The notes under the pieces are model-generated. The model saw only the letters and a list, made by a program, of their open reading frames with translations, had not been told where the DNA came from and did not search any database. From Clostridia bacterium (GTDB lineage: Bacteria; Bacillota; Clostridia; Christensenellales; CAG-314), in the NCBI GenBank assembly GCA_900769665.1, contig CAAGHL010000070.1, positions 13,620 through 77,619 on the forward strand: 64,000 nucleotides of DNA, read 5' to 3'. Both the position numbers and the translations under genes were made by a program. Below, piece by piece: positions 26,743 to 48,025 of this stretch (positions are counted from its first letter, which is position 1; each line of letters opens with the position of its first letter).

Positions 26743-26951
26743 AACGAATATCTCCTTGTATTCAGTGGATTTTCAACAAGATTGGGTGCCGTGCGCCAAG
26801 TCCGCAACGCCTTCGACATCGGTATTGCCTACATCGGAAACATTGCTAGCGGCATTTGTGCGTGCGCATAAACGGTTACTTACAAAACCATGCACCGCTT
26901 TTGCAAACTTCACAGCCCGATCACTTTGTTGGCAATCTTGCCGTTCGTTTG

Positions 26952-26978
26952 TTAGCACTCTTCCTCATTGACTGCTAA
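26952..26978. promoter_or_regulatory. CIRCE element (HrcA operator) upstream of hsp20
   Basis: TTAGCACTC, N9, GACTGCTAA, versus consensus TTAGCACTC-N9-GAGTGCTAA (1 mismatch). It directly abuts the -10 box. Confidence 0.75.
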
Positions 26979-26979
26979 C

Positions 26980-27007
26980 ACTATACCACATCTACATTAT
27001 TTGTCAA
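26980..27007 (-). promoter_or_regulatory. Sigma-A promoter candidate for hsp20
   Basis: Minus strand: TTGACA (27002-27007), 16 nt, TATAGT (26980-26985). Confidence 0.6.
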
Positions 27008-27120
27008 CGGATTTTTGACAATTTTAGCAAAAAATATTCGTCAAACGTGTACAAATCACGTCCGTTTGTTTACATTAGCCAAAAACAATTAAGTTTCAGC
27101 CGCTTCAAGCATACAAACCG

Positions 27121-28896
27121 CTACTTCAACGCCTCGTATTGACTGTTATATATTTTGGCGTAAAAGCCGTTTGCCGCCATCAGTTCCGCATGGGTGCCTT
27201 GTTCTACAATACTGCCGTTGTTGACGACGAGTATAGTGTCAGCGTTAAGTATAGTACTAAGTCGGTGCGCAATTACAAACGCCGTGCGTCCGACAAGCAA
27301 CTTGTCCATGGCTTCCTGTATCAGCAACTCGGTACGTGTGTCCACGTTGCTGGTCGCCTCGTCAAGTATCAACATCGGTTTGTTTGCCAAGTAACTGCGT
27401 GCAATGGTCAGCATTTGCTTCTGTCCGCCGCTAAGGTTGGTAGTTTCCTCGTTGATTACCGTTTGGTATCCGCCGGGCAACCCGTCGATAAAGCCGTCGA
27501 TGTGCGCAAATTCGCACGCTCTTCTTAAGTCTTCCTCCGTTGCATTCGGATTGCCGTACGCCACGTTGTCGAACACCGTACCTCCAAACAGCCACGTATC
27601 TTGCAACACCATTGCAAACATATCTCGCACCACATTTCTCGGTAAGGTCGCCGTGTCCACGCCGTCGATAAGTATTTGCCCCTCGTCAGGGTCGTAAAAG
27701 CGCATAAGCAAGTTGACGATGGTTGTTTTTCCGCCGCCAGTCGGACCGACGATTGCCACCTTTTGCCCTGCCTTTACCTGCACGCACAAGTCTTCGATTA
27801 GCGGTTTTTGCTTGTCGTAGGCAAAATATACGTGTCTAAACTCAACGTTGCCGCGCACCTCGTTTCGTGTTCCGCAGTCAACTTCCTGCATTTCGGGCAT
27901 ATCCAACAATTTGTACACGCGGTCGGCGCACGCCAAAGTATGTTGCACCGATCCCATGCCGTTGGCAATGCTTTCCAGCGGTCCTGCAAACATTTTTGCA
28001 AACAATATCACGGCAATCACGTCGCCGACGCTAACCACATTGTTGACGGCAAGCACTGCGCCGATGATACACACGGCAACGTAGGCAATGTTGTTGGTAA
28101 AGGCAATTATCGGTTGCACCGTGCCGGACATCCGTTGCGCACGAAACAGTTTTTGGCGATATTGGTCGGTAATTTCCGCCATTTGCTTGTGTTGGTGTTC
28201 CTCCAAATTAAACGCCTTGACAGTGTCGAATCCGCCGTAGTTCTCTTCGACAAAGGCGTACATTTTGCCGTTTACCTTTCTAAACTCGTGCCACGTCTTT
28301 TCGCACCGTGCGGAAATCACAACGGACAGCACCACCGACAGCGGCACCAACGCCACCACGGCAAGCGCAAGCCACACGTTGACGGCAAACATCATATAAG
28401 TAATGATTACTATGCGCACGAAGCCGTCCAACAGCGTGTCTGTAATGAGGTAAATGGTCGAGCTCATATTAGACACGTCGGACATCATGCGCGACAGCAA
28501 TTCCCCCGCAGGAGTGTTATCCACAAAAGACACCGGCAAACGCTGTATTTTGTCGCTGATGCGTATGCGCAAATTTTTGGTGTAGAAGCGTGAGGTAATG
28601 TTGGTCGTCAGTATGACCATTGCCGAGCTGAGCACCCCTGCCGCAATGTAAAACAATGCCGCCTTGGCGCACAGCACGCCCAACGCATACATATCTATCG
28701 GCTTGCCCGTTTCGCCGAAATCGAACAGCATATCCGTCATTTGACTGACGAGCAACGGCGTTTGCGTGGACACCAACACCGAGCCGACGCAAATTACCGC
28801 CGCCAAAACAAACGCCCACGCAATAGGTTTTGTGTCGCGCACCAGCCTAGCCACCGTTTTCATCGCCGTGGAGCGTTCCTTAGGCGTTTTACTCAT
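27121..28896 (-). CDS. ABC transporter, fused permease/ATP-binding subunit (exporter, second half of a heterodimer)
   Basis: Six TM segments plus an NBD with Walker A GPTGGGKTT, signature LSGGQKQ and Walker B LILDEATS. Start trimmed to ATG 28894-28896 behind GGGGGTGA, with an 8-nt overlap with the upstream gene. Confidence 0.9.
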   Translation of the reverse strand: MSKTPKERSTAMKTVARLVRDTKPIAWAFVLAAVICVGSVLVSTQTPLLVSQMTDMLFDFGETGKPIDMYALGVLCAKAALFYIAAGVLSSAMVILTTNITSRFYTKNLRIRISDKIQRLPVSFVDNTPAGELLSRMMSDVSNMSSTIYLITDTLLDGFVRIVIITYMMFAVNVWLALAVVALVPLSVVLSVVISARCEKTWHEFRKVNGKMYAFVEENYGGFDTVKAFNLEEHQHKQMAEITDQYRQKLFRAQRMSGTVQPIIAFTNNIAYVAVCIIGAVLAVNNVVSVGDVIAVILFAKMFAGPLESIANGMGSVQHTLACADRVYKLLDMPEMQEVDCGTRNEVRGNVEFRHVYFAYDKQKPLIEDLCVQVKAGQKVAIVGPTGGGKTTIVNLLMRFYDPDEGQILIDGVDTATLPRNVVRDMFAMVLQDTWLFGGTVFDNVAYGNPNATEEDLRRACEFAHIDGFIDGLPGGYQTVINEETTNLSGGQKQMLTIARSYLANKPMLILDEATSNVDTRTELLIQEAMDKLLVGRTAFVIAHRLSTILNADTILVVNNGSIVEQGTHAELMAANGFYAKIYNSQYEALK

Positions 28897-30637
28897 GGCG
28901 CTCACCCCCTTTGCAATGCGTTTCGGAGTAGCCTTTGCCAAGCTGACTGTCACAAATTTCACGATACGTATTGCAATTTTCAAGCAATTCCTCGTGAGTT
29001 CCGCAACCGACAACTCTGCCACAGTCCAACACATACACCTTGTCACAACGCTTTGCCGTAGCCGCACGTTGCGTGACAATCACCTGCGTTTTGCCTTGCA
29101 AACGGGCGTTTAGCGCACGCCGCAAATTGCTTTCGGTAAGGAAGTCCAACGCCGAAAAACTGTCGTCGAATATGTACACCGAAGCGTCCTTGACGATGGC
29201 TCGAGCAATGTTTATGCGTTGCTTTTGCCCACCGCTTACGTTTGTTCCGTCGGGCGTCAACATGTATTGCAAACCTTCCTCGTGTTCGGCAATAAAATCT
29301 GCCATTTGCGCAACGCCCAACGCCTCAGCGACTTGTTTGTCGTCGGCATCGCGGTTGCCCATACGCACGTTGTCGGCAATCGTGCCTTCAAACATGGTAG
29401 CACGTTGTAACGCCACCGACATGTTGTCGCGCACAACGCCTACGGTCGCTTGGTCGTAGTCCACGCCGCCGAGCTTGCGCACGCCGCTACACGGATAAAA
29501 CCCGAGCAGTAGTTTGACAAGCGTTGTTTTGCCGCTACCCGTGCCGCCTATCACGCCGACGATTTGTCCCTCTTCCGCACAAAAATCGATGTCGGACAGG
29601 GAGTTTACTCTGCTGTCGGGGTAGGCAAATGACACGCCGCTAAACTCGATTGCGCCGCTGAGCTTTGTTTTGTCGACGGTTTTACTTTCCTCGACTGGCA
29701 TGTTCATCACTTCGGCAATGCGCCCTAGACTCACCTTGACGCGCGGTACGGAAGAAATCGACCAACTGACCACAAGCACTGCATTGACAATCAATGCAAT
29801 GTACTGTATCGTGGCAATGATGTCGCCTGCACGTAATGTTTCCACACGTTGCAACCGCACCGCACCCACGTACACAATGGCAACGGTGGCAAGGTTTAGC
29901 GCAAGTCCTGCAAGCGGATTGACAAGACCGCCGATAGTGTTGTTGCGCACATAGCAGTTGTTCATTTCCGTAGTAGCGGCGGCGACGCGTCCGTGCTCGT
30001 AGTTTTCCCTATCAAAGGCACGCACCACGCGTATACCGCCCAAACGCTCGCGCATGATGCGGTTTTGTTGGTCGGTAAGTTGGTCGCCACGCTCCCAATA
30101 CTTGTCTAGTCGCAATGTAACGACAGCCGTTACCACAAGCACCGCCGCCGAAATGCCGAGCAAAATAAGCGGCAACACCCAATCGCCCTTGAAGCTAAGC
30201 AAGATACCGCCGACAAACATAATCGGTGCGGAAATCAGTAAGTACGGCAATGATGTGATTACTTCTTCCAGCCAACCGATGTCGTCGGTACTGCGAGTAA
30301 TCAAACTGCCCGTGCCGACGGAGGAAAACTGCTCGAAGGTAAGCGAATTGACCTTGTCGAAGATTTGACTGCGCATGTCCGCCGTCAGCCGCGAGGAAAA
30401 GTCCGCAGACAACCGCACGTTGACAAGCGACGTAATCATTGCCGCCGCCGCAAGCGCAATCATCACCGCGCCCCTTACATATATGTACGGCAAATTGCCC
30501 GTGCGCACGCCAAGCTCCACAATGTCGCTCATCACGTACGGCAAAAACAATCCGCACAAAGTTTGCGCCGCATATAAAATCATCAAGGCAAATACGTATT
30601 TTGTATATGGTTTTACAAATTTTAGCAATAGTTTCAT
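28889..30637 (-). CDS. ABC transporter, fused permease/ATP-binding subunit (exporter, first half)
   Basis: Walker A GGTGSGKTT, signature VSGGQKQ, Walker B IFDDSFS. Confidence 0.9.
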   Translation of the reverse strand: MKLLLKFVKPYTKYVFALMILYAAQTLCGLFLPYVMSDIVELGVRTGNLPYIYVRGAVMIALAAAAMITSLVNVRLSADFSSRLTADMRSQIFDKVNSLTFEQFSSVGTGSLITRSTDDIGWLEEVITSLPYLLISAPIMFVGGILLSFKGDWVLPLILLGISAAVLVVTAVVTLRLDKYWERGDQLTDQQNRIMRERLGGIRVVRAFDRENYEHGRVAAATTEMNNCYVRNNTIGGLVNPLAGLALNLATVAIVYVGAVRLQRVETLRAGDIIATIQYIALIVNAVLVVSWSISSVPRVKVSLGRIAEVMNMPVEESKTVDKTKLSGAIEFSGVSFAYPDSRVNSLSDIDFCAEEGQIVGVIGGTGSGKTTLVKLLLGFYPCSGVRKLGGVDYDQATVGVVRDNMSVALQRATMFEGTIADNVRMGNRDADDKQVAEALGVAQMADFIAEHEEGLQYMLTPDGTNVSGGQKQRINIARAIVKDASVYIFDDSFSALDFLTESNLRRALNARLQGKTQVIVTQRAATAKRCDKVYVLDCGRVVGCGTHEELLENCNTYREICDSQLGKGYSETHCKGGERHE

Positions 30638-30689
30638 TTTATCTTTGTCGCTTAGGGATCAATCGTCACAGTCGACCGCCTCAAGGTAT

Positions 30690-30721
30690 AAAAAAAAGGA
30701 GGCTTGCATATGCAAACCTCG
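30690..30721 (-). terminator. Rho-independent terminator after rpsR
   Basis: Minus strand: GAGGTTTGCA, TA, TGCAAGCCTC, then T8. Confidence 0.8.
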
Positions 30722-30756
30722 CTTAGTTGGCTTAAAGCTAGAAATCCGTATCGAAA

Positions 30757-31002
30757 TTAGTCGGCAACGTAGGGAATCAAAGCCATTTGACGTGCGCGTT
30801 TGATTGCTACTGCAAGCTCTCTTTGGTGACGAGCGCAAACGCCTGTCATACGACGGGGCAAAATTTTGCCGCTTTCCGTAAGGTACTTTTTGAGCTTAGC
30901 AACGTCTTTGTAGTCGATGCTTTCGGATTTCTCCACGCAGAAGTTGCAAACCTTTCTACGTGCAGGCTTTCTCATAGGCTTTTTGAATTCTTTATTTTCC
31001 AT
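30757..31002 (-). CDS. rpsR: 30S ribosomal protein S18
   Basis: KVCNFC...IDYKD...[18 protein letters not shown]...[13 protein letters not shown]. Confidence 0.95.
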
Positions 31003-31021
31003 TGTTATTCTCCTTGTAAAC

Positions 31022-31441
31022 TTAGAAAGGCATGTCGTTGTCGTCCGCTTGAACTTCCGTCAATGTGTCGATTGTTTGACCGCCTTGACGGGGTGCAGGT
31101 TGACCGGGGGCGGGTGCTACGCCGCCTTGGTTGGCGCGGGACAAAAATTCCACTTGATCCGCACGGATGTCAAATGTTTGACGTTTGACGCCGTCGCGTT
31201 CGTAGCTGCCTGTTTGGATACTTCCTACAACAGCAACTTGGCTACCCTTTACAAGGTACTTGACGCAGTTTTGCGCAAGCGAATCCCAAGTGATGATGTT
31301 GATGAAGTCCGCACGATTTTCGCCGTCACGAGAATAGGGACGGTTGACTGCAATGCTGAAACGGCAATAAGAGTGACCGGATTCAAACGAAGAAGCCGTC
31401 GGATCCTGTGTAAGTCTGCCAATCAAAAATACTTTGTTCAT
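31022..31441 (-). CDS. ssb: Single-stranded DNA-binding protein
   Basis: [16 protein letters not shown]-fold N-terminus, Gly/Pro/Gln-rich linker, acidic tip DNDMPF. Confidence 0.95.
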
Positions 31442-31462
31442 TGTCTTCTCCTCGGTGTCCGA

Positions 31463-31744
31463 TTACTTTTTGACAACCATGAAACGAACTACGCCGTCGG
31501 TGATACGGAGTACGCGTTCCACTTCGTCGGGAAGAGTTGCGGCTGCAGAGAAGTTTACCAAAACATAGTAACCTTCGGTCTTGTAGTTGATGGCATATGC
31601 AAGTTTGCGTGTGCCCCACTTGTCAACTCCGTCGACCGTTCCGCCGTTGTCCGTAACAACCGCATTGATCTTGGCGATAATTGCCTCCTTGGCTTCGTCG
31701 GAAAGATCGTTGTCGATGATGTACAACAATTCGTAACTGTTCAT
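31463..31744 (-). CDS. rpsF: 30S ribosomal protein S6
   Basis: MNSYELLYIIDNDLSDEAKE...KWGTRKLAYAI. ORF 31463..32155 trimmed to ATG 31742-31744 behind AAGGAGGT. Confidence 0.95.
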   Translation of the reverse strand: MNSYELLYIIDNDLSDEAKEAIIAKINAVVTDNGGTVDGVDKWGTRKLAYAINYKTEGYYVLVNFSAAATLPDEVERVLRITDGVVRFMVVKK

Positions 31745-31955
31745 AACTATATACCTCCTTATGGACTTTTGGCAGCGACAGGTAGTCGCCGCAAGGTGTG
31801 CCCGTACTACGAGCAATAGTATTATATAATATATATCCGCGAAAAGCAAGCGTTTTTTTGCAAGTTTTTTAGAAAGATAGATTTGCAACAATTGAATTTG
31901 CACTTCCACTTGAGTAACGACGCATTTAATCGTTTGACCGTCAGGTCGAAGCCTT

Positions 31956-32948
31956 CTAATTGGCTTGCGTGACTGCGACGGGTTGCTTGAACGTGGTAAT
32001 CTTGCCGTTGTCGGCGTCCTGAAACAACATCCAAAACGCAACGGGCGTGCTGTCCACGTAGACAAAATCCTTGTCGAAGAAACCGTCCTTTTCCGCAGGC
32101 AAGCCGTAACAAATGTACCGCACTTTGCCTTCCCGTTGCAGTACGCCAAGCACAAAGTATTTGTCCGAAGAGGGGAAGTCGATACGCACGAAAAAGGACT
32201 CCTCGTACTTTTTGATCAGCGGAAAGTACGGTGGAAACTCCACAAACAGTTTGCCGATTTCTCGTTTGACAGTTTCGTAGTAGTCGCAGTTGGCGCCCGT
32301 GGCGTAAAAGCGGTCGAATGCGTCGCTGTACTCCTCTACGCTTTTGTAACGCCCGTCGGCGGTTTTGCGCAAGGTGGTCAAGTCCATATCGGTGTAGTAG
32401 TCGGCAGTGGACGCAACAAACTCTTCGTATTTGGTGGGGTCTTCGCCGTCGGCACTGCCGTTGGGCAAATTGCCGTCTTGCGCAGTGGCAGAGGTCACCT
32501 GTTCCGTCGCATTGACGGGAGGTTCCGACACGTTTTGCACGGCATTGGCGTTTGTTGCCGACTTTGCAACGGCGGCAGCTACAAGCTTGTCCATGTGTCG
32601 AGCCAATTTGTCGCAAAGGGCAGCCTCTCCAAGCACGCCTCGAGCCGCTTCGTAGCACTTGCCCTCTCGCTTGACAAGCAAGCACCCGATGTTGTCAAGG
32701 TCCTTGACGGGCAAGGCAAACACTCGGTTGTTTAGGTCCGGCAACAACTTTGCGTACACTGCGTCGCCGAAGTTGAGCAACAGCCACCACTGCCCGAAAC
32801 CGCCGTTGTCGGCATTGGTAACAAACACCGTAACGGTGGTTTCCGTGGCGGAATTGTTGACCAGTTTGACCATGCCGCACAGCTCGCGGTTGCGTTCGGC
32901 AAAGCGTTTGTCCGTTTGTTGCAATATCATCACTCGTTTGCAGTACAT
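31956..32948 (-). CDS. Hypothetical protein (330 aa), conserved-looking C-terminal domain
   Basis: ATG 32946-32948 behind GGAGGAA. Central low-complexity linker. C-terminal segment FVLGVLQREGKVRYICYGLPAEK...FWMLFQDADNGKI. No family recognised. Confidence 0.6.
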   Translation of the reverse strand: MYCKRVMILQQTDKRFAERNRELCGMVKLVNNSATETTVTVFVTNADNGGFGQWWLLLNFGDAVYAKLLPDLNNRVFALPVKDLDNIGCLLVKREGKCYEAARGVLGEAALCDKLARHMDKLVAAAVAKSATNANAVQNVSEPPVNATEQVTSATAQDGNLPNGSADGEDPTKYEEFVASTADYYTDMDLTTLRKTADGRYKSVEEYSDAFDRFYATGANCDYYETVKREIGKLFVEFPPYFPLIKKYEESFFVRIDFPSSDKYFVLGVLQREGKVRYICYGLPAEKDGFFDKDFVYVDSTPVAFWMLFQDADNGKITTFKQPVAVTQAN

Positions 32949-33163
32949 ATTTCCTCCGTATTTTGTCCGTTTTGACTGTTTTTGTAACAAAAAAGTGCAC
33001 ACGTATATATTTTTTGCCGACATCGCAATTGTCGACAAAACAAGCCGTCGCACACATTTAGTAGATAGCCATATATTGCCACTACCCCTATTTCGTATAC
33101 AAATATACCAAATTTTTCACGCAGAAAATTGACTTTGTTTGTCGAAATTACTCGAAAAACCGC

Positions 33164-33194
33164 ACAAAAAAGACTGCCGCAAGCAGCAGTCTTT
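33164..33194 (-). terminator. Terminator after the Cys-rich protein gene (bidirectional-looking)
   Basis: AAGACTGC, loop, GCAGTCTT, flanked by A6 and T-rich tracts. Confidence 0.75.
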
Positions 33195-33236
33195 CTAGTT
33201 TTTTCGTTGTCATCACTTTATGGCTACAAACGGTTG

Positions 33237-35438
33237 TCAGCTATACAACTGCGTGTAGTCGCAACCGTCGCAAGTACATTTCCAATATTCGTGTTGCTCA
33301 CCGTCAACAGTCATCTTTTGAATTTCGCCCAACACGTGTCCGTGCCTGTACCAGTCTACTTTCAAATCGCCGTCAAATATCGTTTGCCCATTGTAAGTGA
33401 TTCGCATATGCAAGCTGCCGACAATGTTATTAAACTCGTCGGGATCGCTTATCGATTCGGCATGTTTGATGTTTATTGATGAAATATTGACCAGCAATCC
33501 ACAATCGAGGCAAACATACAGTCGACTTGTTTTTGTACTCGATTTCAGCCACAAAACACGTCCGTGCCTGTCGCCCTCGAGCCACTCGGTATAGTCGTCG
33601 TGGTCTATTGCAAGATACGTTTCGCCCTGCCCGCAAGGACAAGTAGAAATATACAAATTGTGACCGCAGTCGCCTATTTCCTTATCCACGACTTCTTCAA
33701 TGTGGCGGTACTCGATGCGTTCCGTAGTGTCGCCGCACACCGTACAAGTGGATGTCACTTTGACGCCGTCCTTACAACTTTTGCTACCCGAGAGCAGTTC
33801 TGCTGTTTGCTTGTATTCGTGATTATTACGAGCATACTCAACTTCCTGCTTATGGCAAACGGAGCACTCGTACACAAGCTTGCCGTAATACTTGCAACTT
33901 GTCGTTTCGCCCTCGACAAGTTGCATTTTGTGCAGACACTTGTCGAAATCGTACAGTTTTCCCGTATTGATGTCCATAGAGAAGTTCAACCCCGACGAAA
34001 ACTCGTATCTGACGTCCGCGCTCGTATCCAAACCAACGCTTTCGACTTGCGCCTTTGTGAGCATTACTCGTTCGCCGTCTTCTTCCACGTAATAGACAAT
34101 GCTTTCCGTCACGATCATTGGTGAAAACACTACGCACATCAACCAATTGTCACCGCACTCCTCGTACATACCGATAAAGCACGCATTGGCAAAGTTTATT
34201 TTTCTCGTTACGGTGTATATCGAGTAAATTTCTTTTCCTTCAAAACTTGTGCCGCTGTAACCACCGCCATAGGTGTAGCTGTAACTGCCCCACCATTGTC
34301 CGTCGATTTGTTCCACCTTTGCGCTGTTGCGCTCTTCACCCTCGTCAGCCAAAGCTTGCGTAAGTTCCAACGCTTCGCTTTCCGTTGTGGGCGTTTTGAA
34401 TTTGTCTGTGTACTGCGCCACACTATCCACGAATTTGTCGGGATCGAAGTCTATCTTCATATCGGGCAAAACGGTAACGTCAAAGCTTGCCCTAGCCATT
34501 TCTTTGCGAATGTAATCGAGTGCGCCGACAAACCATTTGTCGGTATCGTTTTTCACTTCGAAATCCGACTTTGCGGAAACAGCGTAGTTCCAACGCAATT
34601 CTTTCAACACACCGTCTTTGACGGTAGCACGAATCCCGAGCGCTTCCTCGGCAAGGTCGATAAATGCGTCGGCATAGGACTTCAATTGGTCGGCGGTATA
34701 CTCTCGACCACCGGTGTTGTCGTTTGCCACAACGGCGATTAGCGCATACGGAGTCATATCCTTTATTTGCGGCAAGTACTCTTCCAGCCATTGCTTTACG
34801 CTGTCGATACCGACAAGCTCGCCGACGTTTGTTGCAAGCACTTCCTCGTCGGCAAGCAAACCTGCTACCGTTTTGCCGTCGGGTACTTTGATACCGCAGT
34901 AATACAGCAATTCTTCCAATGTTACGTTACTTCCGCTCACGTCGATAAACGCTTGCGCCAAACTCAAAACGTCGACAACTTTCAAACCGCGCTGTTCCAA
35001 TGCAGACAGTAAATCTTTTACAGTCATCTCGCCGATTTTGTCACAAATTTTCGGTAACGTATCAAGAAATCCTTCACCAAACGCCTTGTCGAAGATGTTG
35101 CGCAAGGTGTATGTTTGCAAGTCTTTGCTGATTTGACGCAAGGAGTCGAAGTTGATCATGTACACATCGCCGTCGTTGGTTGTAGCCTTGCCGACAATGC
35201 CGCCGAGAAACTTCTTGACTGCCGCAATTTCCGCCGCATTTTTGCTTTGCACCGCGTCCAACACAACGTCGAGTTTGGTTGCTAGATCGGATATTGTTTT
35301 GCTGTCGGCATTAAAACCATTAAAGAGATCCGCACCGACCATGCTGTTTGCAAGCGCTTTGATTAGTTCGTCTGCATCGGCAACGAGATAAGCGCGCGCA
35401 CGGACGGTGTGTGTACAAAACGTTCGAATCCAAGTCAA
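33237..35438 (-). CDS. C-terminal ~730 aa of a Cys-rich extracellular protein (no credible own start; continues from 35320..36150 after a frameshift)
   Basis: The ORF-track start is TTG with no RBS. Sequence is protein-like from ...TVRARAYLVADADELIKAL. Multiple CxxC/His clusters (CSVCHKQ, TCTVCGD, CLDCG, CTCDGC). Confidence 0.6.
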   Translation of the reverse strand: MTWIRTFCTHTVRARAYLVADADELIKALANSMVGADLFNGFNADSKTISDLATKLDVVLDAVQSKNAAEIAAVKKFLGGIVGKATTNDGDVYMINFDSLRQISKDLQTYTLRNIFDKAFGEGFLDTLPKICDKIGEMTVKDLLSALEQRGLKVVDVLSLAQAFIDVSGSNVTLEELLYYCGIKVPDGKTVAGLLADEEVLATNVGELVGIDSVKQWLEEYLPQIKDMTPYALIAVVANDNTGGREYTADQLKSYADAFIDLAEEALGIRATVKDGVLKELRWNYAVSAKSDFEVKNDTDKWFVGALDYIRKEMARASFDVTVLPDMKIDFDPDKFVDSVAQYTDKFKTPTTESEALELTQALADEGEERNSAKVEQIDGQWWGSYSYTYGGGYSGTSFEGKEIYSIYTVTRKINFANACFIGMYEECGDNWLMCVVFSPMIVTESIVYYVEEDGERVMLTKAQVESVGLDTSADVRYEFSSGLNFSMDINTGKLYDFDKCLHKMQLVEGETTSCKYYGKLVYECSVCHKQEVEYARNNHEYKQTAELLSGSKSCKDGVKVTSTCTVCGDTTERIEYRHIEEVVDKEIGDCGHNLYISTCPCGQGETYLAIDHDDYTEWLEGDRHGRVLWLKSSTKTSRLYVCLDCGLLVNISSINIKHAESISDPDEFNNIVGSLHMRITYNGQTIFDGDLKVDWYRHGHVLGEIQKMTVDGEQHEYWKCTCDGCDYTQLYS

Positions 35439-36150
35439 CGCGAAGCAAGTCCGTTATCACGCCGTACAGTTTACCGTTTTCCAACACGCCGCTGTACTCG
35501 GCTTCTTGAGCAAACTCGTCGTTGCCGTTTTCGACGGGTATATTGGCTTTGTTGCGTAGTAAGCAATTGACTATCAGTTTGGCGTTGCCATTGGAAAGCA
35601 TACCCCAAACGATGTCGGCTTTGACAACCTGCCACATATTGTCGTCCATACCAAGCAAGTGAGCGTTGTCCTCGGTCAAAAACTCTACGTTGCTAAATTT
35701 GATACCGTACTCGAAGGCTTCCGTTTTGCCGTCTGTGCCCACTGCCGCCACCGCCGAAAAACGTCCGCAAATAAGACAAATGCCCGACGGCGAATAACTG
35801 TGTTTGCCGCTGTCCACCTTTACATTGTGTCCGCACGTGGCATTTTTCCAGTGTTCGGCTTCGTCACTCGACCAAAAGCTTTCGGTTGCGTGTCCGCTAG
35901 TAACCTTCTTATAGTTGCACACGGTACACGTGTAGGTCATCTCACCGCAATCGTCACCCTCGGCAGGCTTTGTTTGCACGCCTTTGTCAAATACGTGCGG
36001 TTGCTTCAACGTTTCACCGTCCGACTTGACCCAATGGTACTCTTGGTCAAAGCCGTACTCGATGTCCCCGTTCGTCACACCGTCGCATGCGCCTAGCACA
36101 AATGCAAACGCAAGCACGACACACAACGTCAATAGCAGTTTATTCTTCAT
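35320..36150 (-). CDS. N-terminal lipoprotein portion of the same Cys-rich protein (frame lost near 35392-35414)
   Basis: ATG 36148-36150 behind GAGGAGGT. Lipobox LAFAFVLGAC. TYTCTVCNYKK..GH and GICLICG modules. The last ~30 codons are Arg/Cys-rich out-of-frame-looking sequence. Confidence 0.6.
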   Translation of the reverse strand: MKNKLLLTLCVVLAFAFVLGACDGVTNGDIEYGFDQEYHWVKSDGETLKQPHVFDKGVQTKPAEGDDCGEMTYTCTVCNYKKVTSGHATESFWSSDEAEHWKNATCGHNVKVDSGKHSYSPSGICLICGRFSAVAAVGTDGKTEAFEYGIKFSNVEFLTEDNAHLLGMDDNMWQVVKADIVWGMLSNGNAKLIVNCLLRNKANIPVENGNDEFAQEAEYSGVLENGKLYGVITDLLRVDLDSNVLYTHRPCARLSRCRCRRTNQSACKQHGRCGSL

Positions 36151-36420
36151 ATTACCTCCTCAAATCAAATACATATATTTATATTAAAAACATATGTTCT
36201 TGTTGTATATAGTAAAGTATTTGAAAGCAAAAATCAAGCGTTACAAGAAAGAAAATGCAATAATGAAAATATGACAACATTATTTGCTTTTGCAACTGTT
36301 TTCGGTTATGTTTTTCACCGGTAACCGCACTCTCCAAAATGATTAGCGACAATGCGGAAACCTTATAACCGATATTACAATCAACAATATCTTGAATTTT
36401 CCGACAGTCGACTGTAATCA

Positions 36421-36450
36421 AAAAAAAAGGCACAAGCCTAAGCTCGTGCC
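36421..36450 (-). terminator. Rho-independent terminator after the HAD hydrolase gene
   Basis: Minus strand: GGCACGAGC, loop, GCTTGTGCC, then T8. Confidence 0.8.
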
Positions 36451-36519
36451 TTGAAGATACATATTTTGTTGTACGGCATGCAGTCGTTTGCGACATTGGC
36501 TAGTGTGCCCAAAAAGTCG

Positions 36520-37356
36520 TCAACGCTTGACTTCGTAGGACTTGTGCGACAGTTCCTCATACTTGGTTTCGGCGCAAATCTTTTCCAAAATAATTTTCAT
36601 TGCGGCGTCCATTTGACTGCCGTCGCGGTAGTCGCCCTTGACGTAGAAATCCACTCGTTCGTCGTCCACAAGGTACAATGCGTCGTCCGGTCTGCGGTAA
36701 ACGCCCACGGCATATCCGCCGCGCGTGCGTGTAAGCTTCATACTGGGTACGTCGGTAAGTCCGTCGCCGATGTATATCATGTGGGAAAAGGGCACCACAC
36801 GTTCGTCCGTAGGCATGGACATGTTGAGTTTTTTGTCCTCCGACACGTCCTCCACGCCCTTGTTGATACGGTACAAAAATTGCGTTTTGTTGGTGTAGTT
36901 GATGGCGACGGAAGGCCACACAGGCTCGCCGTTGTCGTCGTAGACGTAGTCGCAAGCGAAGATATTGTAAAACTCCTTGCCTATCGGGCAACCCTCTATC
37001 ATGGGTTTCAGTCCGCAAGAAATGATGTAGTGCCGCACTTCCAAACCTAGGGAAGCTCCGTAGGCGTTGATACGCTTGAACCAACCCTTGACGCCCTCGA
37101 AAAACTTGACGTCCTTGCCCATTTCCTTCAGCTTGTCGCGCGTAAGGTGAATTTCCTTTTCCCTCGCTTTGGTAGCCATAAGGTACATGTAGGACAGTAT
37201 GTGGTCCATATCGTATTTGTGCGCTATTTCGTCGCTTTGCTTCCAAAACGTCACCGAATCCATGCCGAGCGACGGTATGAAAGTAAACTCCTGCATATCC
37301 TTGGTGGACAGCGTGTTGTCGAAGTCGTAAATCAGCGCAACTACATTGTTGTTCAT
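36520..37356 (-). CDS. HAD-superfamily hydrolase
   Basis: Motif I YDFDNTLS. The ORF-track start at 37362 is TTG; ATG 37354-37356 lies 6 nt behind GGAGG. Confidence 0.8.
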   Translation of the reverse strand: MNNNVVALIYDFDNTLSTKDMQEFTFIPSLGMDSVTFWKQSDEIAHKYDMDHILSYMYLMATKAREKEIHLTRDKLKEMGKDVKFFEGVKGWFKRINAYGASLGLEVRHYIISCGLKPMIEGCPIGKEFYNIFACDYVYDDNGEPVWPSVAINYTNKTQFLYRINKGVEDVSEDKKLNMSMPTDERVVPFSHMIYIGDGLTDVPSMKLTRTRGGYAVGVYRRPDDALYLVDDERVDFYVKGDYRDGSQMDAAMKIILEKICAETKYEELSHKSYEVKR

Positions 37357-37447
37357 TTGCAACCTCCTATCACAAAAATTACGTAAAACGGTAATAAAAT
37401 TTCACATACGTATGCGTTTTTTTGCTACACAAGCACTCCGCACCACA

Positions 37448-37816
37448 TCACCAAACAATGCAAACCCAAGTAAGCAACGCTTGCAAAACAATCACGATGG
37501 ACAGCACAAATGTCGGCTTGAACACGTCCTCGTCGGTGCGGTAAATCGGCTTTAGTTTATAAAATAAAAATATAGCCAACACCAACACAAAGGCAACGAT
37601 GTCGGTAATTATCGGTCCCCACATCAGCTCGCCGATGCACGTAGGCGCGCCCCAACCGATGGCAAATTCCTCACCGATGACAAGCGACGTCCACACAAAG
37701 TGCACCAAATTTACGCCGATAAGCAACGTAAGCAACACTATTGCCCAAGCGGAACGCTCGTACTTTTTCTTTTGTCTGATTTTGCTCCCCATGTAGGAGT
37801 TTGGTCTACGTGACAT
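37448..37816 (-). CDS. Hypothetical small membrane protein
   Basis: ATG 37814-37816 behind AGAGGGGA. Three hydrophobic segments. Confidence 0.5.
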   Translation of the reverse strand: MSRRPNSYMGSKIRQKKKYERSAWAIVLLTLLIGVNLVHFVWTSLVIGEEFAIGWGAPTCIGELMWGPIITDIVAFVLVLAIFLFYKLKPIYRTDEDVFKPTFVLSIVIVLQALLTWVCIVW

Positions 37817-37959
37817 AACTACAATCCCCTCTTTACTAAATTACTAGTCAGGACAACTCCACAATCGTCCATACACTACCGCAACCGTCAACAGTTTTAC
37901 AAACTTGGCAATGCGTACTTAGACATTACACACTGCATAGCTACTTGCATGGCGTAAGT

Positions 37960-38022
37960 TTAACGCCAAAGTATCCGTCGTCACACTCTCAAAATGGTTA
38001 GTGATAGCTAAATTAACCCTAC
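37960..38022 (-). repeat. 64-bp GTAGGGTTAATTT... element, copy 1
   Basis: About 89% identical to 58478-58541. Its first bases (minus strand gTAGggtt) supply the stop codon of the 38019..39299 gene. Confidence 0.8.
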
Positions 38023-39299
38023 TTATTTTTCTTCCTAATATTGCCCTTGATAAGGTTTACGATGGTCATAACCAAGCCGATTACGATAAACACGTAGTAG
38101 GACAGGAAACGCCAACCCACCACCGTCCAAAACAGTAGCGACGGTGCGACGACCTTTTCCAAGGCGTACAAAAACAGGCTTTCCACCGCAAGCGAATTAC
38201 CCGGCGTCGGCACAAACATTACGCTCATAGAGGAATACACGTTTAGCGTCATGATTGCAAACATCAGTTCCACGCTGGGCGCAATGCTTCCGCCAAGGGC
38301 AAGCACCACAAAATACGGCAACGTCATGGAAAGGAACGGCTCGGCGATACACAACAGCACTAGCAGTATGGCGCGCAAGGGCTTCTTTGCCATGATGACA
38401 AACCCGTTGCGGAAGTCGTAGGCAATGCGCTTGGCGTGCTCAAATGCGTCCTCGTCACTCTTGATGATGCGCAACTTCATTGCAATGCGCAAAAACCATG
38501 CAACTATGCGCCCCGTAACCTTTGGCAAAAACGCAAAACATACAATCAGTAGCGGCATACTGAGGTTGATACCGAATCCGATCCAACCTGCCACTTTTAG
38601 CCAAGCAATACGCTCGGCATTGTCAACGTAGGTAGCAAGTACGTCTTTGTTGAACAACATCAGACAGAAGCAAATGCTCAGCCAAAAGATGACGTTGAAG
38701 GCGTACTTTATCATTATCACGGCAGAGCTTTCGCCGCCGCTAAGACCTTTTTTGTGCAAGTGATAGATTTGAAACGGTTGTCCGCCCGAGCTAAACGGCG
38801 TAATGTTGTCGTAGTACTTGCCCACAAGCGACACTTTCAGTGCCAACCCGTAGGTTGTTTTGTCGGGGGTGACGGTTTTCAAAATTACGTAGTACTTCAA
38901 GGAGTCCAGCGCCATCATGACAAGCAACACGCCCACGGACAGAAACAGGTACCACGGATTGAGGTTGACGATTACGTCGGCGAAACTCTTGGAGTTGCCG
39001 TCGGCGATTTGCGACGAGAGGTCGTACATAAAGTACAAACTCAGCACAATCACCACCACGAAAAACACGTTGCTCCACACGCGCGTGCCTCGTTCCGGCT
39101 TGGTGTTGTCGCGTTCGTTAAAAGGCGCGTACCTTTCGTCGGGACCATTGTCGGTTGCGTCGATTATTCCGAGGTCGTCTGCTGCTTGAACGCAAGCATC
39201 GTCGGAAAGCGCACATTGTTCGACTTGCTCCGCGACAATATCCGTCGTATTATCGTCGGTATGTTTAGTTGTCTTGTCTTCGTTCATATTCATAAGCAC
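38019..39299 (-). CDS. Flippase-like / lysylphosphatidylglycerol-synthase TM-region family (UPF0104) membrane protein
   Basis: Polytopic, with YYDNITPFSSGGQPFQIYHLHKKG. Start uncertain: GTG 39299, ATG 39293 or ATG 39287, and no clear RBS. Confidence 0.7.
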   Translation of the reverse strand: MLMNMNEDKTTKHTDDNTTDIVAEQVEQCALSDDACVQAADDLGIIDATDNGPDERYAPFNERDNTKPERGTRVWSNVFFVVVIVLSLYFMYDLSSQIADGNSKSFADVIVNLNPWYLFLSVGVLLVMMALDSLKYYVILKTVTPDKTTYGLALKVSLVGKYYDNITPFSSGGQPFQIYHLHKKGLSGGESSAVIMIKYAFNVIFWLSICFCLMLFNKDVLATYVDNAERIAWLKVAGWIGFGINLSMPLLIVCFAFLPKVTGRIVAWFLRIAMKLRIIKSDEDAFEHAKRIAYDFRNGFVIMAKKPLRAILLVLLCIAEPFLSMTLPYFVVLALGGSIAPSVELMFAIMTLNVYSSMSVMFVPTPGNSLAVESLFLYALEKVVAPSLLFWTVVGWRFLSYYVFIVIGLVMTIVNLIKGNIRKKNK

Positions 39300-39621
39300 A
39301 GTATATTATAACACAACTTACGTCACATTGCAATCGTTACGTTCATTTTTGCCGACAGCATTAGCAATATAGTATACAAAATCGCCAATCTTGTTTATTT
39401 TGCCAATAACGTACAACGTCAACCGCCACCCGACACACCGCAACAAACAAAATGACGAGCTCGGCACAATACCAAACTCGTCTTTTTGTCGGGGTCACAT
39501 TGTCGTCACAAAATACTTTACACAGTGCGCAAGCACATTTACAAAAGAGGTGACGCAAAACGCAAACCACAATCTTTGGAAGTCAAAAAAAAACATTTGT
39601 CACTTACACACTACCGCGCAA

Positions 39622-40512
39622 TTACTCTTCGGGAGTTGCCGTCCAGAAAGCGTCCCAATCCGCAGGCACGCCGAAGCCGGAGAAGTCGATTACACGCTTG
39701 AACGGCTCATGGTTGTAAGCAGGAGCAACGTCGCTGTCGGTAATTTCCTTCCCGTTGCCGAAAGCTTTTGCTGTGATTTCGATGTCGTCGGCGGTAAGCC
39801 CTTCGGGCAAAGTGTACTCGCGGTCGGTGTCGGCAAAGATGTAGAATGTTTTGTAAGCCAAAAATTTGTTTTCAAAGCTAAAATCGGTGTAAGTCAACGT
39901 CGTGAGCGTGTCGCCCGTAGCCTTGTTTTTTACATACACTTCGATTTTGCTAGGCATACCATTGAACCACAGTGCGTTTTCGAGGTAGTAGCACGCAAGG
40001 CTGACATTAAGTTTGCCGTCAGCAACCGTGTAGGTAGCTTTAGGTATCCCCAACTTGCCGCCAAGTGTGAAGTCGAATGTGGCAGGGTCGCTGTCGATGT
40101 AGTCGCTAGCCGTTGCAATGCACTTTGCAGTGTAGCTTGCCTTGGGAAGATCGGTAACGTTGATTATTCCGCCCGGGGCAATCGTAGCGTCGGAAAAAGC
40201 ACGCACTTCCATATTTCCCGTAATACGTCCCGTACCGATAAGCATACTGGTCATTGCCACGATGTCGGTGTATTCCTTGCCTTGCGGATCGTACTTGACA
40301 AGCACGATGTAGTAAAATTGTCCGTTTTCCACCGCATCGAAAGCATAGTCACCCGTAGCGGTGTCAAATGTAAAGTTAGCGGGAGAGGCAAGCTTTTGTT
40401 TGTCGGTTTTGTTGCCTTTGTCGTCGTCGGTGTTATTGCAAGCAACAAGTCCCAAAACTCCGCTAAGTACAAGCATTATCGCAACCAGTGCGACGAAAAT
40501 TCTTTTCTTCAT
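39622..40512 (-). CDS. Hypothetical lipoprotein (296 aa)
   Basis: MKKRIFVALVAIMLVLSGVLGLVAC lipobox. RBS GGAGGAA. Confidence 0.7.
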   Translation of the reverse strand: MKKRIFVALVAIMLVLSGVLGLVACNNTDDDKGNKTDKQKLASPANFTFDTATGDYAFDAVENGQFYYIVLVKYDPQGKEYTDIVAMTSMLIGTGRITGNMEVRAFSDATIAPGGIINVTDLPKASYTAKCIATASDYIDSDPATFDFTLGGKLGIPKATYTVADGKLNVSLACYYLENALWFNGMPSKIEVYVKNKATGDTLTTLTYTDFSFENKFLAYKTFYIFADTDREYTLPEGLTADDIEITAKAFGNGKEITDSDVAPAYNHEPFKRVIDFSGFGVPADWDAFWTATPEE

Positions 40513-40534
40513 ATTCTTTTATTCCTCCGTATGT

Positions 40535-42088
40535 TTACATGAGTATTAAGGTTACAAGTAACAACAAGGACGCTATTGCGGTCGGAAAACCAATGTTTTT
40601 GATTTCTTGCTTTTTGAAGGTAAGCAACTTGAGTACTGCATAGGAAATCATACCGATTGCTACGCCCACTACCACGTTTTGCGTAAACGCAACAAGTGCC
40701 GCAGTTGCGGCAAACGGAACAAACTCCGTAATGTCATTGCAATTGCAATTTTTCACTCCGCGTAGCATAAACAATCCTACGGTAAGCATCAACAGTCCGC
40801 TTACCACAAAGCCGGCTTGCGCATACTCGGCAAAGCTGTTGCTTGTAGCGTGACCGTATTCGCTAACCTTTGCCGTGTAAGTGGCAAACAGCGCAAAGAA
40901 AGCCCACGTCAACGAAGCCAATGCGTAGCCGATACCGCACACAACCGAAGCAAGACCCGTTTTTGCCCCTTCTTCGGCGGCAACGGACGATTGCTTGCCG
41001 ATACTGACGGGAGCCGAGCCTACGACGGGAGCAAATACATTTACAGCGGCATTTACCAACAATGCCTTGCCACGACCGAGCGAACAATCGACATCGGACA
41101 GTTCCACCGCTCCGATTGCGCTTTCCGACTCGTACATACCCATAAACAGATATGTAAGCGCACCGCCGATAAACAACGTCACAACGCTACCGTTGTAAGC
41201 CGAGAAGTCAAACCCCTTGGTAAACACTGCGCCCCACTCGATACCCGTCAAGCCGAAGCCGAATGTGTACAAGTTTTCCGCACCCGCAGCCAAGTAAGCG
41301 CGGTCCACGCAAAACAGTTCATTGAACGCCGCAACGACGCCCAATAGATAAAACAGCAACAATCCCGTCAAAAATCCGTACATATAAGGATGTGCGAGAT
41401 TGAAGCGTTTGCATACAATCACTACGATTACACCGATTGTAGCCGCCACAAGCGCAACCGTTGCAAGCGACGAAAGGGACGACCAGTCGACTACGTTTAC
41501 CGCGCCGTTGCTACCTACGGTAATTACGCCGCAAGTTTTTAGCGCATAAGATATTACGTACAATCCCGTGCCTACGGGCAATGCCTTTTTGACAGGTTCG
41601 GGTAATGCGGCAAGCACAAACTTGCGCGAAGCAGGTATTGCCATTACAACCACATATATGATTGCGCCGACAAAAGACACGGCAAGCAAATTGTAGTACG
41701 TCAGTCCGTTTTGTGCGCCAAGTAGGGAAATAAACGCCGTAGACAGCCCGAGGCTAGACACCTGCACCAACGGCAAATTGCACACAAAACCAAGCAACAT
41801 TGTGCCGACAAATGACACGAGCGTAGCCGCAAGGTAAGTCCCTGCATATCCTGCGCGGTCACTGCCGAGCGTTTCGCAAATAATGCGAGTATTCATCAAA
41901 AGTACGCACACCGAGATAAGAAACACCGAAATTCCCGCAACAACCTCTCGCTTCATGGTACTGCCGCGTTCCTTAAACTTGAAAAACTTGTTTAAGCATT
42001 TAGCAAGTCCCTTTGGCTCGTATGTTTGCGATTGTTCCTGCTCGACGGCTACTTCCTCCGAATTGGATACAATTACATTTTCTTCCAT
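40535..42088 (-). CDS. NCS2-family purine permease (AzgA/PbuG-like)
   Basis: FFKFKERGSTMKREVVAGISVFL N-terminal signature, about 12 TM segments. Start trimmed to ATG 42086-42088 behind GGAGAT. Confidence 0.85.
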   Translation of the reverse strand: MEENVIVSNSEEVAVEQEQSQTYEPKGLAKCLNKFFKFKERGSTMKREVVAGISVFLISVCVLLMNTRIICETLGSDRAGYAGTYLAATLVSFVGTMLLGFVCNLPLVQVSSLGLSTAFISLLGAQNGLTYYNLLAVSFVGAIIYVVVMAIPASRKFVLAALPEPVKKALPVGTGLYVISYALKTCGVITVGSNGAVNVVDWSSLSSLATVALVAATIGVIVVIVCKRFNLAHPYMYGFLTGLLLFYLLGVVAAFNELFCVDRAYLAAGAENLYTFGFGLTGIEWGAVFTKGFDFSAYNGSVVTLFIGGALTYLFMGMYESESAIGAVELSDVDCSLGRGKALLVNAAVNVFAPVVGSAPVSIGKQSSVAAEEGAKTGLASVVCGIGYALASLTWAFFALFATYTAKVSEYGHATSNSFAEYAQAGFVVSGLLMLTVGLFMLRGVKNCNCNDITEFVPFAATAALVAFTQNVVVGVAIGMISYAVLKLLTFKKQEIKNIGFPTAIASLLLLVTLILM

Positions 42089-42162
42089 AAAAATCTCCGA
42101 AGTATCATCGGCGCATGCTCCGCAATTACTGCGGAGCAAAGCACCGTATCGTCAACAAACTA

Positions 42163-45100
42163 TCACTTGTTTTCTTTCTTGGTTGCACCCTTAAAGCCTG
42201 GTACTACCTTAAACACGATGATAAGCACGATTGCCGCCGCAAACAAAATGTTTTGAGCAACCCAAATGGAAACCCACCACCAAGCGCGCGTACCTTCGAT
42301 CTTGCCGGAGTGTGCGTATTGGTACAAGGAGTGTTTCATTGTTTGTTGAAGCTTGTATTGTCCGTAGTTGGTGGTATACGAGCCGTCGCCGAATGCCGCA
42401 ACAACGGTAGGATCGTTGACAAACAAACCTACGTGCAGGATGCCGCCTTCCGCACCGTAAAGGAAGAATACAGAGGAGTTGTACACGTCGCCGAAGTCAC
42501 CATCACCGTCGGTGATCATAAATCCGTCAAAGCCCCAGTCATGTTGCACCATTGTGGTGTGGAATCCGTAATGCGACCAAGCCGTGCCGATTCTATTCAT
42601 GGCAGCCATGATACCGTCGGCTTCGTACTTTTTGACGGAAATCTCAAACGGGCGAGCGTAGATCTCGCGGATGGCTTGTTCGTTAGCCCACGTGCATACG
42701 CCCGTACGGTTGGTGTCGTTGTCGTTGATTGCAAAGTGTTTGATTGTTACGGACGTACCCGTGGATTGGATACCTGCAACTTCCGAACCACCGATTTCGC
42801 CTGCCAACACGCCATCTTCACTAAAGTACTCGAAGTTACGTCCGCCGAAAGGAGAACGGTGCGTGTTCATGGAAGGACCGTATGTGCCGCCGAGGTTGAA
42901 CAGTACCGATTGATGTCCGTATGCAACGCCGGTTTCGTTGACAAGGTCGGTATTGAATGTGGACGCAAGCAATACTGCGCAGGGCCACCACGTAGCTCCG
43001 TTGTACTTTCCGTTTGCCACTTCCGCAGGACCGTCAAGGAATGTAACGTACTTTTTGCCTACTGAGTCCACGTTTGTGGTGCGATAGGAGCATACGCCTT
43101 GAAGAGTGATTGCCTCTTCCAACGTCGTCATGGAAGCAAGCATATCCCAAATGTTGCTGGTTGCAGGCACGTATCCCATGTCGTCCACCGACAGTTTGTG
43201 GTACTTGCCCGAAGCGATTTCAGAGGGATTTTCGTACACGGCAAACGTTCCGTCGTCATTCATCTTTACCTTGCCGTCATCGCCTTCTTCTACGTAATAC
43301 ACCTTGCCCCAATCAACCTTGTAGCTTTCGTCGTTGACGGATTTGCCGTCGACGGTGGTAGTCATGTAGGGCGCAACGTCGTTGCCGTGTGCGTAGTAAG
43401 TTTTGGTGATGGTCGTCTTTACACCGTTGATGTATGTTTCAAAGGTGTATTCCGCACTTTGCTTACCCGTCAGCAACAGTATCTTCGAGATACCTTCGGC
43501 AAGTATTTCGTTAGGTGCTTCGTTGGATTGGTGACGCATTATCGAAGCCATACCGTCGGAAATGTTGCTTCTGGACAAATATCCGTCTAACATGTTACCG
43601 TCACCTGCCGTCACGTCGTCCATTGCGTTACGTGCCGTGTTGGCGTCGCTGTTTCTCTTGACTGCGTACACCGCTCCGTCCACGATACCTTCGACGGGAC
43701 CCGTGGGTTTCTCCTTGAAGATGACGGGGTGAGCAAGGTTGAAGGAAACGCTGTCGTAATAAGCAGTGTTGCCGCTTTCCGCCCAACAGTGGGCGTTGTC
43801 TTGGATGTTGAACTTGTATGTGCCGTTTTCAAGCACGTAACAACCTTGACCGAAGTTGTCGTAGGATGCGATTTCGTCCGTTTCAAAGGTAATTACAACG
43901 TCTTCGGAAGCACCGGGAGCAAGCTCCTTGGTTTTACCGAACGCAACGAGAGAAACCTTGGACTTTTCCAAGCCTCTGCCCTTGATACCGAAGTTATTAG
44001 TATCGCTTGCGTATGGTGCGTCGACGTACAATTGGACAATTTCCTTACCCGTATACGTGCTACCAGTGTTGGTTACGCGCACTGTGATGCTGTTTGTTCC
44101 GTGCGGAGTCATCGTAACGTCGGAAGCAACTATTTTTTGCGAGAAGGTCGTGTAGGACAAGCCGTAGCCGAATGGAAATTGCACCACTTGATCGTAGCCG
44201 CCCGTCACTTTGCCGTTTTTGAACTCGATTGCCTTGAATGCGTCACTGTCGAAGTAACCTTCGGCGGCAGCGGTTTCGTAGTACTTGTAACCTACGTAGA
44301 TACCTTCTTCGTATTGGTAGAACTTGTGCGCGTTACCGTTGCCTGCAATGGCTTTGCCATCGGCTGTTTTCAGTTCGGCATTGGCGTACTCGTTATTGTC
44401 CATGTTGTAGTATGTAGGGTTGGTGGTCATGTCGTATGCGTAGGTGTCGGCAAGTGCGCCCGAAGGAGATTTGCCGGCAACCACGTTTGCCGTACCCATG
44501 ATACCTGCCTCGCCGGGCAAGCCCATCCACAAGCATGCGTCCACACGGTACTTTTCCTCGTTGAGGAAGCCGCACTCGAGGGGCGTTGCGGAGTTGAGCA
44601 ACACGATTGTTTTGTCAAAGTTTTCCTTAGCAAACTCCAACAATGCGTACTCGTTGTCGCCAAGCTCCAAAATGGTACGATTGAGTGTGGAACCCGTGTT
44701 GTCGATGTCCATTGTGGGAGAAGCGCCTTCGGCACCGGTACGGGAGAACATGACGAGTGCAGTCTTGTAACTTCCGATAGACGGCTTGACAAATTGCTCG
44801 TAGGTTTCGCGAGTGAACTCGTTAATATTTTGGTAGCCTACCCATGCGGAAGAGGTCACGCCGGGGTCGCCGCTTGCAAGAAACGCAGGATCGGTGTTAC
44901 GTCTGCGTGCACCGCCGCTTGCCTTTACAAGCCATTGCCATACGTCGTCGTTGACGCTGAGTCCTGCGTCGGAGAATGCTTTGTACGGGGTGATTGTGTT
45001 GTTGTCGTCCTTACCGCCCGCACTGCCCTCGCCGCCGATGATGTAGTTGTACGTCATTGCTCCTAACAACGTAACCTTGTCGCCCTTGGCAAGAGGCAAG

Positions 45101-48016: not shown

Positions 48017-48025
48017 ATTATAGTA

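Follow-up and report, generated by a model that had tools for sequence, protein, structure and literature searches.

Comparison of the 64,000-nucleotide (nt) stretch of Clostridia bacterium contig CAAGHL010000070.1 (hereafter, the window) with related sequences from gut metagenomes indicates that two overlapping minus-strand open reading frames (ORFs) of 276 and 733 amino acids (aa) are the two parts of one large lipoprotein gene. This locus is quite likely a pseudogene, recently inactivated by a tandem duplication of the tetranucleotide CCGT, and not a switch. The gene is real, and the event is of an ordinary kind. Two marks of a pseudogene are present: a disruption relative to full-length intact orthologues and a downstream fragment devoid of translation signals. 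An initial annotation, made from the sequence alone, had already proposed a single lipoprotein gene split by a frameshift, and this proposal is borne out by 969-aa orthologues and a single-indel alignment; among its three alternatives (phase variation, a recent pseudogene or an assembly error), the recent pseudogene is the one favored by the evidence.

The conceptually fused protein is matched in a protein search by an uninterrupted 969-aa sequence, P0001, with 95% identity and full-length (100%) coverage. P0001 represents a 90%-identity cluster of 122 sequences that includes several other intact 969-aa members, all of which have ...DSNVLYTHRARAYLVADADE... across the junction (in the intact alleles P0010, P0012, P0013 and P0018 the junction reads ...NVLYTHRARAYLVADADE), and intact one-piece 969-aa orthologues are found in at least 11 other gut metagenome samples. 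At the DNA level, the window gene is 99.2% identical to the intact alleles L002 and L003 in an alignment over 2,910 nt, in which the sole indel is an additional CCGT at nt 744. Thus, the window reads ...TACACACA[CCGT][CCGT]GCGCGCGCTTA..., whereas the intact alleles read ...TACACACA[CCGT]GCGCGCGCTTA...; the two-copy junction sequence of the window (region 35380-35420) is CCGTCCGT. The extra CCGT is absent from all intact alleles as well as from lineage B, and an exact-pattern scan of JGI metagenome contigs, with 0-8 nt allowed between the tracts, returned one contig, in the single-copy form. Besides the duplication, 24 substitutions in 2,910 nt separate the window allele from the nearest intact allele compared, a number small enough to make the inactivation recent.

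The initial annotation had placed the frameshift inside two short dinucleotide tracts, (GT)4 and (GC)4. It was correct about the positions of both tracts and about where the frames swap, but the lesion itself is the CCGT duplication in the spacer between them: its minus-strand context is ACACA[CCGT][CCGT]GCGC, within the 7-nt spacer cgtCCGT that separates (GT)4 from (GC)4, inside neither tract. Since (AC)4 on the coding strand and (GC)4 each comprise four units in every allele covering the site, dinucleotide slippage was not the cause. (In a 94%-identical clade with a stop at W93, described below, the AC run ends in T instead of C, a synonymous change.) A single 971-codon ORF can indeed be obtained by adding 2 nt or deleting 1 nt at the junction, as the annotation had it, but the ancestral reading frame is two codons shorter, at 969, and it takes the removal of 4 nt to restore it.

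As the locus now stands, the upstream ORF has the good ribosome-binding site and lipobox that had been ascribed to it (ATG start, GGAGG 5 nt upstream, VLGAC), and the TTG that opens the downstream ORF, as had been pointed out, lacks a Shine-Dalgarno sequence. No GGAGG-like sequence precedes either this TTG at 35438 or the ATG at 35342, which is the alternative start of the gene caller for the downstream part and is also without a ribosome-binding site; the downstream fragment has no signal peptide, and the 733-aa ORF becomes protein-like only from ...RARAYLVADADELIKAL onward. Following R249 (...NVLYTHR), the upstream frame is shifted by +1 and runs through 27 foreign residues to a stop at codon 277; the two frames overlap by about 40 codons.

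The following sequence of events would account for this arrangement. The ancestral locus would have been a single 969-codon gene, with its own ribosome-binding site and terminator, encoding a lipoprotein composed of a signal peptide with lipobox Cys22, Cys/His stalk modules, an alpha/beta central domain of about 600 aa and a Cys/His-rich C-terminus. One CCGT unit would then have been duplicated in tandem at codon 248-249, most simply by replication slippage or a repair error. What the truncated product would retain is the signal peptide with the lipid anchor, the Cys/His modules and some 115 central-domain residues; it would probably be unstable or inert, and presumably without function. The remaining 720 codons would be left without a ribosome-binding site or an export signal, and any reinitiation product would stay cytoplasmic; thus, given that this remainder has neither a ribosome-binding site nor a signal peptide, no surface protein is expected from it. 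An annotation should join both ORFs into a single entry, marked as a frameshifted pseudogene, instead of listing them as phase-variable.

The same gene is broken in other strains, by different mutations, and some of the fragments in the 122-sequence cluster are not due to truncation at contig ends. In four loci (L004-L007, two of them from Hadza samples, with 11 contigs on record), W93 is converted to a stop (TGG>TAG). Another clade, of 11 loci from many samples (L008-L018), has a frameshifting 481-nt deletion (nt 394-874) with TCG/GACGTT microhomology at its junction; the deletion as well as an L394 TTG>TAG stop are present in every one of these loci that covers the respective site, to these, the two sub-branches add E31>TAG and S642>TAG, respectively, and a single nucleotide is also missing in one contig. 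The 481-nt segment is equivalent to window positions ~35273..35757, and this deletion is widespread in gut metagenomes from many studies. The deletion clade is an older pseudogene lineage that has been accumulating stops after the deletion. One additional contig of 2.6x coverage (L026; ERZ1034998 NODE-8406) has a 1-nt deletion at nt ~478 with an adjacent substitution, in codon 160, which may represent a fourth independent frameshift or an error due to the low coverage. In a neighbor-joining tree of 22 alleles, the three lesion types fall into separate clades, all three of them next to intact alleles, which implies at least three independent inactivations. The nonsense substitutions and the 481-nt deletion are irreversible, and the population pattern is, therefore, one of gene loss and not of on/off switching: the species can do without this lipoprotein gene and has repeatedly lost it through unrelated mutations.

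Several observations weigh against the inactivation of the window gene by the duplication. The insertion is known from assemblies, and could stem from an error in consensus or assembly, or from a population that is mixed at the site; the allele is traced to three contig records, with one visible sample accession; a two-copy 4-nt repeat could in principle revert by slippage; and comparing the window allele with the nearest intact relative yields a ratio of non-synonymous to synonymous substitution rates (dN/dS) of 0.26 (12 synonymous, 12 non-synonymous), with no decay yet, which fits a very recent event but equally an artefact. We nevertheless regard it as improbable that the additional CCGT arose in assembly or sequencing and that the gene is intact in the strain. 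Such an error would be in keeping with the apparent origin of the window as a metagenome-derived assembly, with the rarity of the duplication allele (three contig records vs. at least 11 samples with intact alleles), with the absence of decay elsewhere in the gene and with the lone 1-nt deletion in the low-coverage contig L026, possibly itself an error. On the other hand, exactly these 276-aa and 701-aa products are recorded for three contigs of 50-200 kb, and the same duplication is found in L001, a metagenome assembly scaffold from sample SAMN02334146, which differs from the window by one single-nucleotide polymorphism in 10,831 nt (window 40049, C vs. T). The window and L001 are separate assemblies of essentially the same strain and, being non-identical, at least two assemblies agree on the insertion. 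Moreover, the junction site contains neither a homopolymer nor a long repeat, and a clean 4-nt tandem duplication is not typical of short-read or assembler errors.

Slipped-strand phase variation, the first alternative offered in the initial annotation, would make this a contingency locus that switches the lipoprotein via gain and loss of short repeat units. The lesion is indeed a change in a tandem repeat (CCGT, from one to two copies) between two short alternating purine-pyrimidine tracts, within the gene of a presumably surface-exposed protein that is off in many strains, yet we find this explanation hard to sustain. The repeats amount to four dinucleotide and one or two tetranucleotide units, far below those of known contingency loci; tract length does not vary in any allele covering the site; and elsewhere the gene is off through nonsense substitutions or a 481-nt deletion, neither of which can revert. 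Tandem Repeats Finder detects no array within positions 33000-36500, so that a hypermutable simple-sequence tract is lacking, and tracts of this kind are no more frequent in the window than expected by chance (10 dinucleotide tracts of at least four units vs. 15.4 +/- 4.0 under a first-order Markov model). Recoding, e.g., programmed +1 ribosomal frameshifting yielding the full-length protein, deserves next to no credence. A +1 shift anywhere in the frame overlap of about 40 codons would fuse the two frames, but there is no slippery motif, stimulatory hairpin or homopolymer at the junction, whose DNA folds into no structure better than that of shuffled sequences and no stable hairpin. Alignment to orthologues, a check put forward in the initial annotation, revealed every close orthologue to be an undivided ORF lacking the 4 additional nt, and a conserved two-gene arrangement was not seen; since no orthologue conserves the split, programmed frameshifting was rejected. 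The recent pseudogene thus accounts best for the locus, and its wider interest is modest: an uncultured gut species of Clostridia repeatedly discards a strain-variable, presumably surface-anchored lipoprotein.

Substitution patterns point to a genuine protein-coding gene under weak constraint. Values of dN/dS (Nei-Gojobori) are 0.21-0.23 between the two deep allele groups and 0.24-0.55 among intact alleles, and rise to 0.6-0.9, on small counts, between the deletion clade and the nearest intact allele. For three of the four flanking genes compared (HAD-like, 330-aa and ssb) the corresponding values are 0.00-0.02, while the 0.28 of rpsF derives from only four substitutions and is uninformative. 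Divergence is distributed unevenly along the gene: over the last 160 codons (33240..33720, minus strand), L004 and L028 differ from L002 with a dS of 0.57 and a dN of 0.12, as compared to a dS of 0.01-0.19 in the rest of the gene and 0.01 in its first 162 codons. This C-terminal divergence, together with the apparent mosaic structure of P0001, which joins the central region of one allele group to the C-terminus of the other, suggests recombination or diversifying exchange between allele types at the C-terminus. The gene may even be a hotspot of adaptive loss, in which host or phage pressure (the protein being, e.g., an IgA target or a phage receptor) is escaped by irreversible loss. We offer this possibility tentatively and consider it rather unlikely; it is prompted by at least three unrelated knock-outs in human populations on several continents and by the divergent C-terminal 160 codons. 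If true, it would mean that a surface lipoprotein evades such pressure by irreversible loss rather than by phase variation.

With regard to genomic context, the gene lies between a HAD-like hydrolase gene on one side and, on the other, a 330-aa gene upstream of rpsF-ssb-rpsR. Terminator-like hairpins on both sides (Table 1) suggest that it is monocistronic. In related Clostridia metagenome-assembled genomes (from rabbit and other sources), the HAD-like and 330-aa genes are adjacent, with about 110-150 nt between them and no lipoprotein gene in that space (L020, 7016..8864; L024, 7052..8843), and a scan of GTDB representative genomes, among which the species itself did not turn up, found no copy of the lipoprotein. 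The adjacency of the flanking genes in relatives marks the lipoprotein gene as a lineage-specific accessory, which was, therefore, inserted in, or retained only by, the lineage of the window.

As separate observations, the 330-aa gene (window 31956..33053, minus strand; the called ORF is 365 aa), located directly upstream of rpsF-ssb-rpsR, has no recorded Pfam hit, shares about 55% identity with its counterparts in related Clostridia and evolves under strong purifying selection (dN/dS 0.02); its product is a conserved unknown in a ribosomal-protein neighborhood. Throughout the window (1..64000), GC skew is negative and the minus strand carries most of the long ORFs; tRNA and Rfam scans of the 64 kb gave nothing reaching threshold.

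Table 1. Features of the disrupted lipoprotein gene and its surroundings in window coordinates
Feature	Position	Strand	Details and basis
ORF 1	35320..36150	-	276 aa, ATG start, GGAGG 5 nt upstream, lipobox VLGAC
ORF 2	33237..35438	-	733 aa, TTG start, without Shine-Dalgarno sequence
Shine-Dalgarno GGAGG	36155..36159	-	5 nt before the ATG of ORF 1; read from sequence
Signal peptide and lipobox MKNKLLLTLCVVLAFAFVLGA-C with lipidated Cys22 (predicted)	36085..36150	-	Sequence reading
Ancestral codons 1-249, original frame, end ...NVLYTHR	35404..36150	-	Alignment to intact alleles L002, L003
Lesion, CCGT x2 (minus strand)	35400..35407	-	Extra 4 nt = 35400..35403; intact alleles have CCGT x1
(GC)4 tract	35392..35399	.	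Part of R-A-R-A coding; same length as in other alleles
(GT)4 tract, (AC)4 on coding strand	35407..35414	.	Length unchanged in intact close alleles
Out-of-frame tail PCARLSRCRCRRTNQSACKQHGRCGSL, then stop	35320..35403	-	Translation of ORF 1
Ancestral codons 250-969 and stop, now in +1 frame	33237..35399	-	Without own ribosome-binding site or signal peptide; presumably untranslated
Complete zinc-type Cys/His module, aa 47-120	35791..36012	-	Module profile A3, E = 1e-24
Family-specific central region, aa ~280-660, mostly helical	34167..35309	-	AlphaFold2 pLDDT ~55-80
C-terminal Cys/His-rich region, aa 747-969	33240..33908	-	Module profile and repeat-protein matches
Terminator-like hairpin and T run, after stop codon	33169..33194	-	
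Terminator-like hairpin upstream of gene	36427-36452		

The intact protein would be a lipoprotein, presumably anchored at the cell surface: its N-terminal signal peptide ends in a lipobox matching [LVI][ASTVIG][GAS]C, and neither M1 nor C22 varies in the full-length family alignment A2. The central region has only about a dozen relatives, all uncharacterized lipoproteins of 530-1,700 aa. Scans of both ORFs and of an intact orthologue against Pfam, NCBIfam, PHROGs and PADLOC yielded nothing above threshold. A profile of the family alignment, searched against a set of 5.8 billion proteins, recovered, apart from the gene itself, no more than two repeat proteins, both unrelated. In the C-terminal region, repeat proteins match aa 747-857, P0116 having the same C-terminal layout; aa 747-810 hold two degenerate copies of the N-terminal Cys/His module (domain E-values 7e-4 and 7e-3), along with further CxxC motifs. 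Hence, the same kind of module occurs in both halves of the split gene, as the initial annotation had noticed.

Structure prediction was likewise a check put forward there. A first AlphaFold2 run, with close orthologues and N-terminal relatives, was unusable (predicted local distance difference test score, pLDDT, 33); a second one, with 13 family members, reached a pLDDT of 57, and a Foldseek search of the resulting model against the PDB gave no match at E <= 0.001, with template modeling (TM) scores below 0.1. Lipovitellin, ApoB and OrfX2, the top Foldseek entries, were not significant and are not interpreted. Against BFVD there was one hit (E = 2e-5, TM 0.06-0.08), and our guess is that it reflects rod-like modules. 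As a working model, drawn by analogy with the IgA protease described below, the protein could consist of a surface-displayed binding or enzymatic domain carried on short zinc-stabilized stalk modules beside the lipid anchor. It is conceivable, though rather unlikely, that the central domain so presented is a new fold or activity.

All candidate ligands of the N-terminal module (H52, C75, C78, H87, H100, C106, H108 and H117) are present in the copy at aa 47-120, which is flanked by partial modules (HW at aa 39-40, CLIC at aa 125-128); a search of the rest of the window for a second copy was negative. Among 1.84 billion representatives, exhaustive HMMER searching produced 583 hits, nearly all on aa ~47-130. 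In this library, the ~72-aa module is repeated up to 16 times within a protein, and the proteins that carry it are large, often with FGE-sulfatase or Listeria-Bacteroides repeats (P0025, P0027, P0028 and others). In an alignment of 40 modules, including aa 47-120 of the window protein, the series H, C, C, H, H, C is invariant and two further H are nearly so. The profile built from these 40 modules (A3) matches, among PDB sequences, 9qa6_A, the immunoglobulin A (IgA) protease of Thomasclavelia ramosa, at E = 2.7e-15, at chain residues 849-968 and 1068-1143, confined to the ZBD1/ZBD2 segments; a phmmer search of PDB sequences with the entire protein had no significant outcome, 9qa6 being reached only by the profile. 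Judged from this match, the window module shares homology with the "periscope" domains ZBD1 and ZBD2 (CTD2 and CTD4) of this protease. The initial statement that the protein matches no family holds for Pfam and NCBIfam, no Pfam model matching the module either, but not for the module as such, given its wide distribution and this homology. The zinc binding and the stalk role of the modules are predictions by analogy, and the AlphaFold2 model has short beta-strands through aa 31-116 at a pLDDT of only ~46-70.

Several known systems resemble this gene and its product in part. Contingency loci of Neisseria, Haemophilus, Campylobacter and Helicobacter likewise turn a surface-protein gene (presumed to be one here) off by a change in the copy number of a tandem unit. 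Those loci typically have longer arrays, whereas in the window the copy number goes from one to two, length polymorphism among alleles is absent and the other off alleles are irreversible. The overall layout is shared by a set of very divergent Firmicutes lipoproteins (P0038, P0069, P0103, P0116, P0129 and others; 20-24% identity), with which only aa ~280-660 align significantly and which belong to no Pfam or NCBIfam family. They begin with a lipobox Cys and one to three Cys/His modules that end in C-x-x-C-G-[RKQ]-[FY]-S, share the central conserved motif LLGEG...LP...TVGD.LD.LE..G and, in most cases (but not in P0103), have a final Y-x-C-x-x-CG element. Classical C2H2 zinc fingers match the module profile more weakly (Aart 2i13, E = 1e-6), with weak scores for designed as well as natural arrays, because of the common core Y-T-C-x-x-C-G-x10-12-H-x-H (C-x2-C...H-x-H); the window protein differs from them in its export signal, its beta-rich ~72-aa module and eight conserved Cys/His, and has no Pfam zf-C2H2 match.

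The M64 IgA protease of T. ramosa (PDB 9QA6) shares with the window protein the same sequence family of ~72-aa Cys/His repeats. Gomis-Ruth and colleagues describe ZBD1 and ZBD2 as small three-stranded sheets with predicted 2His/2Cys zinc sites between them, on which catalysis does not depend (PMC12237041), and the periscope is described as an extended rod proposed to space the enzyme from the cell (PMC12415215); zinc binding by these domains is, as described in the two papers, predicted and not experimentally resolved (PMC12237041, PMC12415215). The His/Cys ligand candidates named in the two papers are all found in the window protein, and both proteins are presumably displayed on the surface of gut Firmicutes cells, by the cell anchor that the papers assign to the protease and by the lipobox here. 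They differ in that the window protein has no M64 domain and no HExxH (for the metzincin motif HExxHxxxGxxD, Pfam and NCBIfam gave no hit), and in the placement of the modules, which here are N-terminal beside the lipid anchor and degenerate at the C-terminus, and which in the protease, as described there, follow the catalytic domain and precede the anchor. The window protein thereby adds a lipoprotein context to the recently described periscope modules with their predicted zinc binding, and the module, present in 583 representative proteins and still outside Pfam, is far commoner than the two papers imply.

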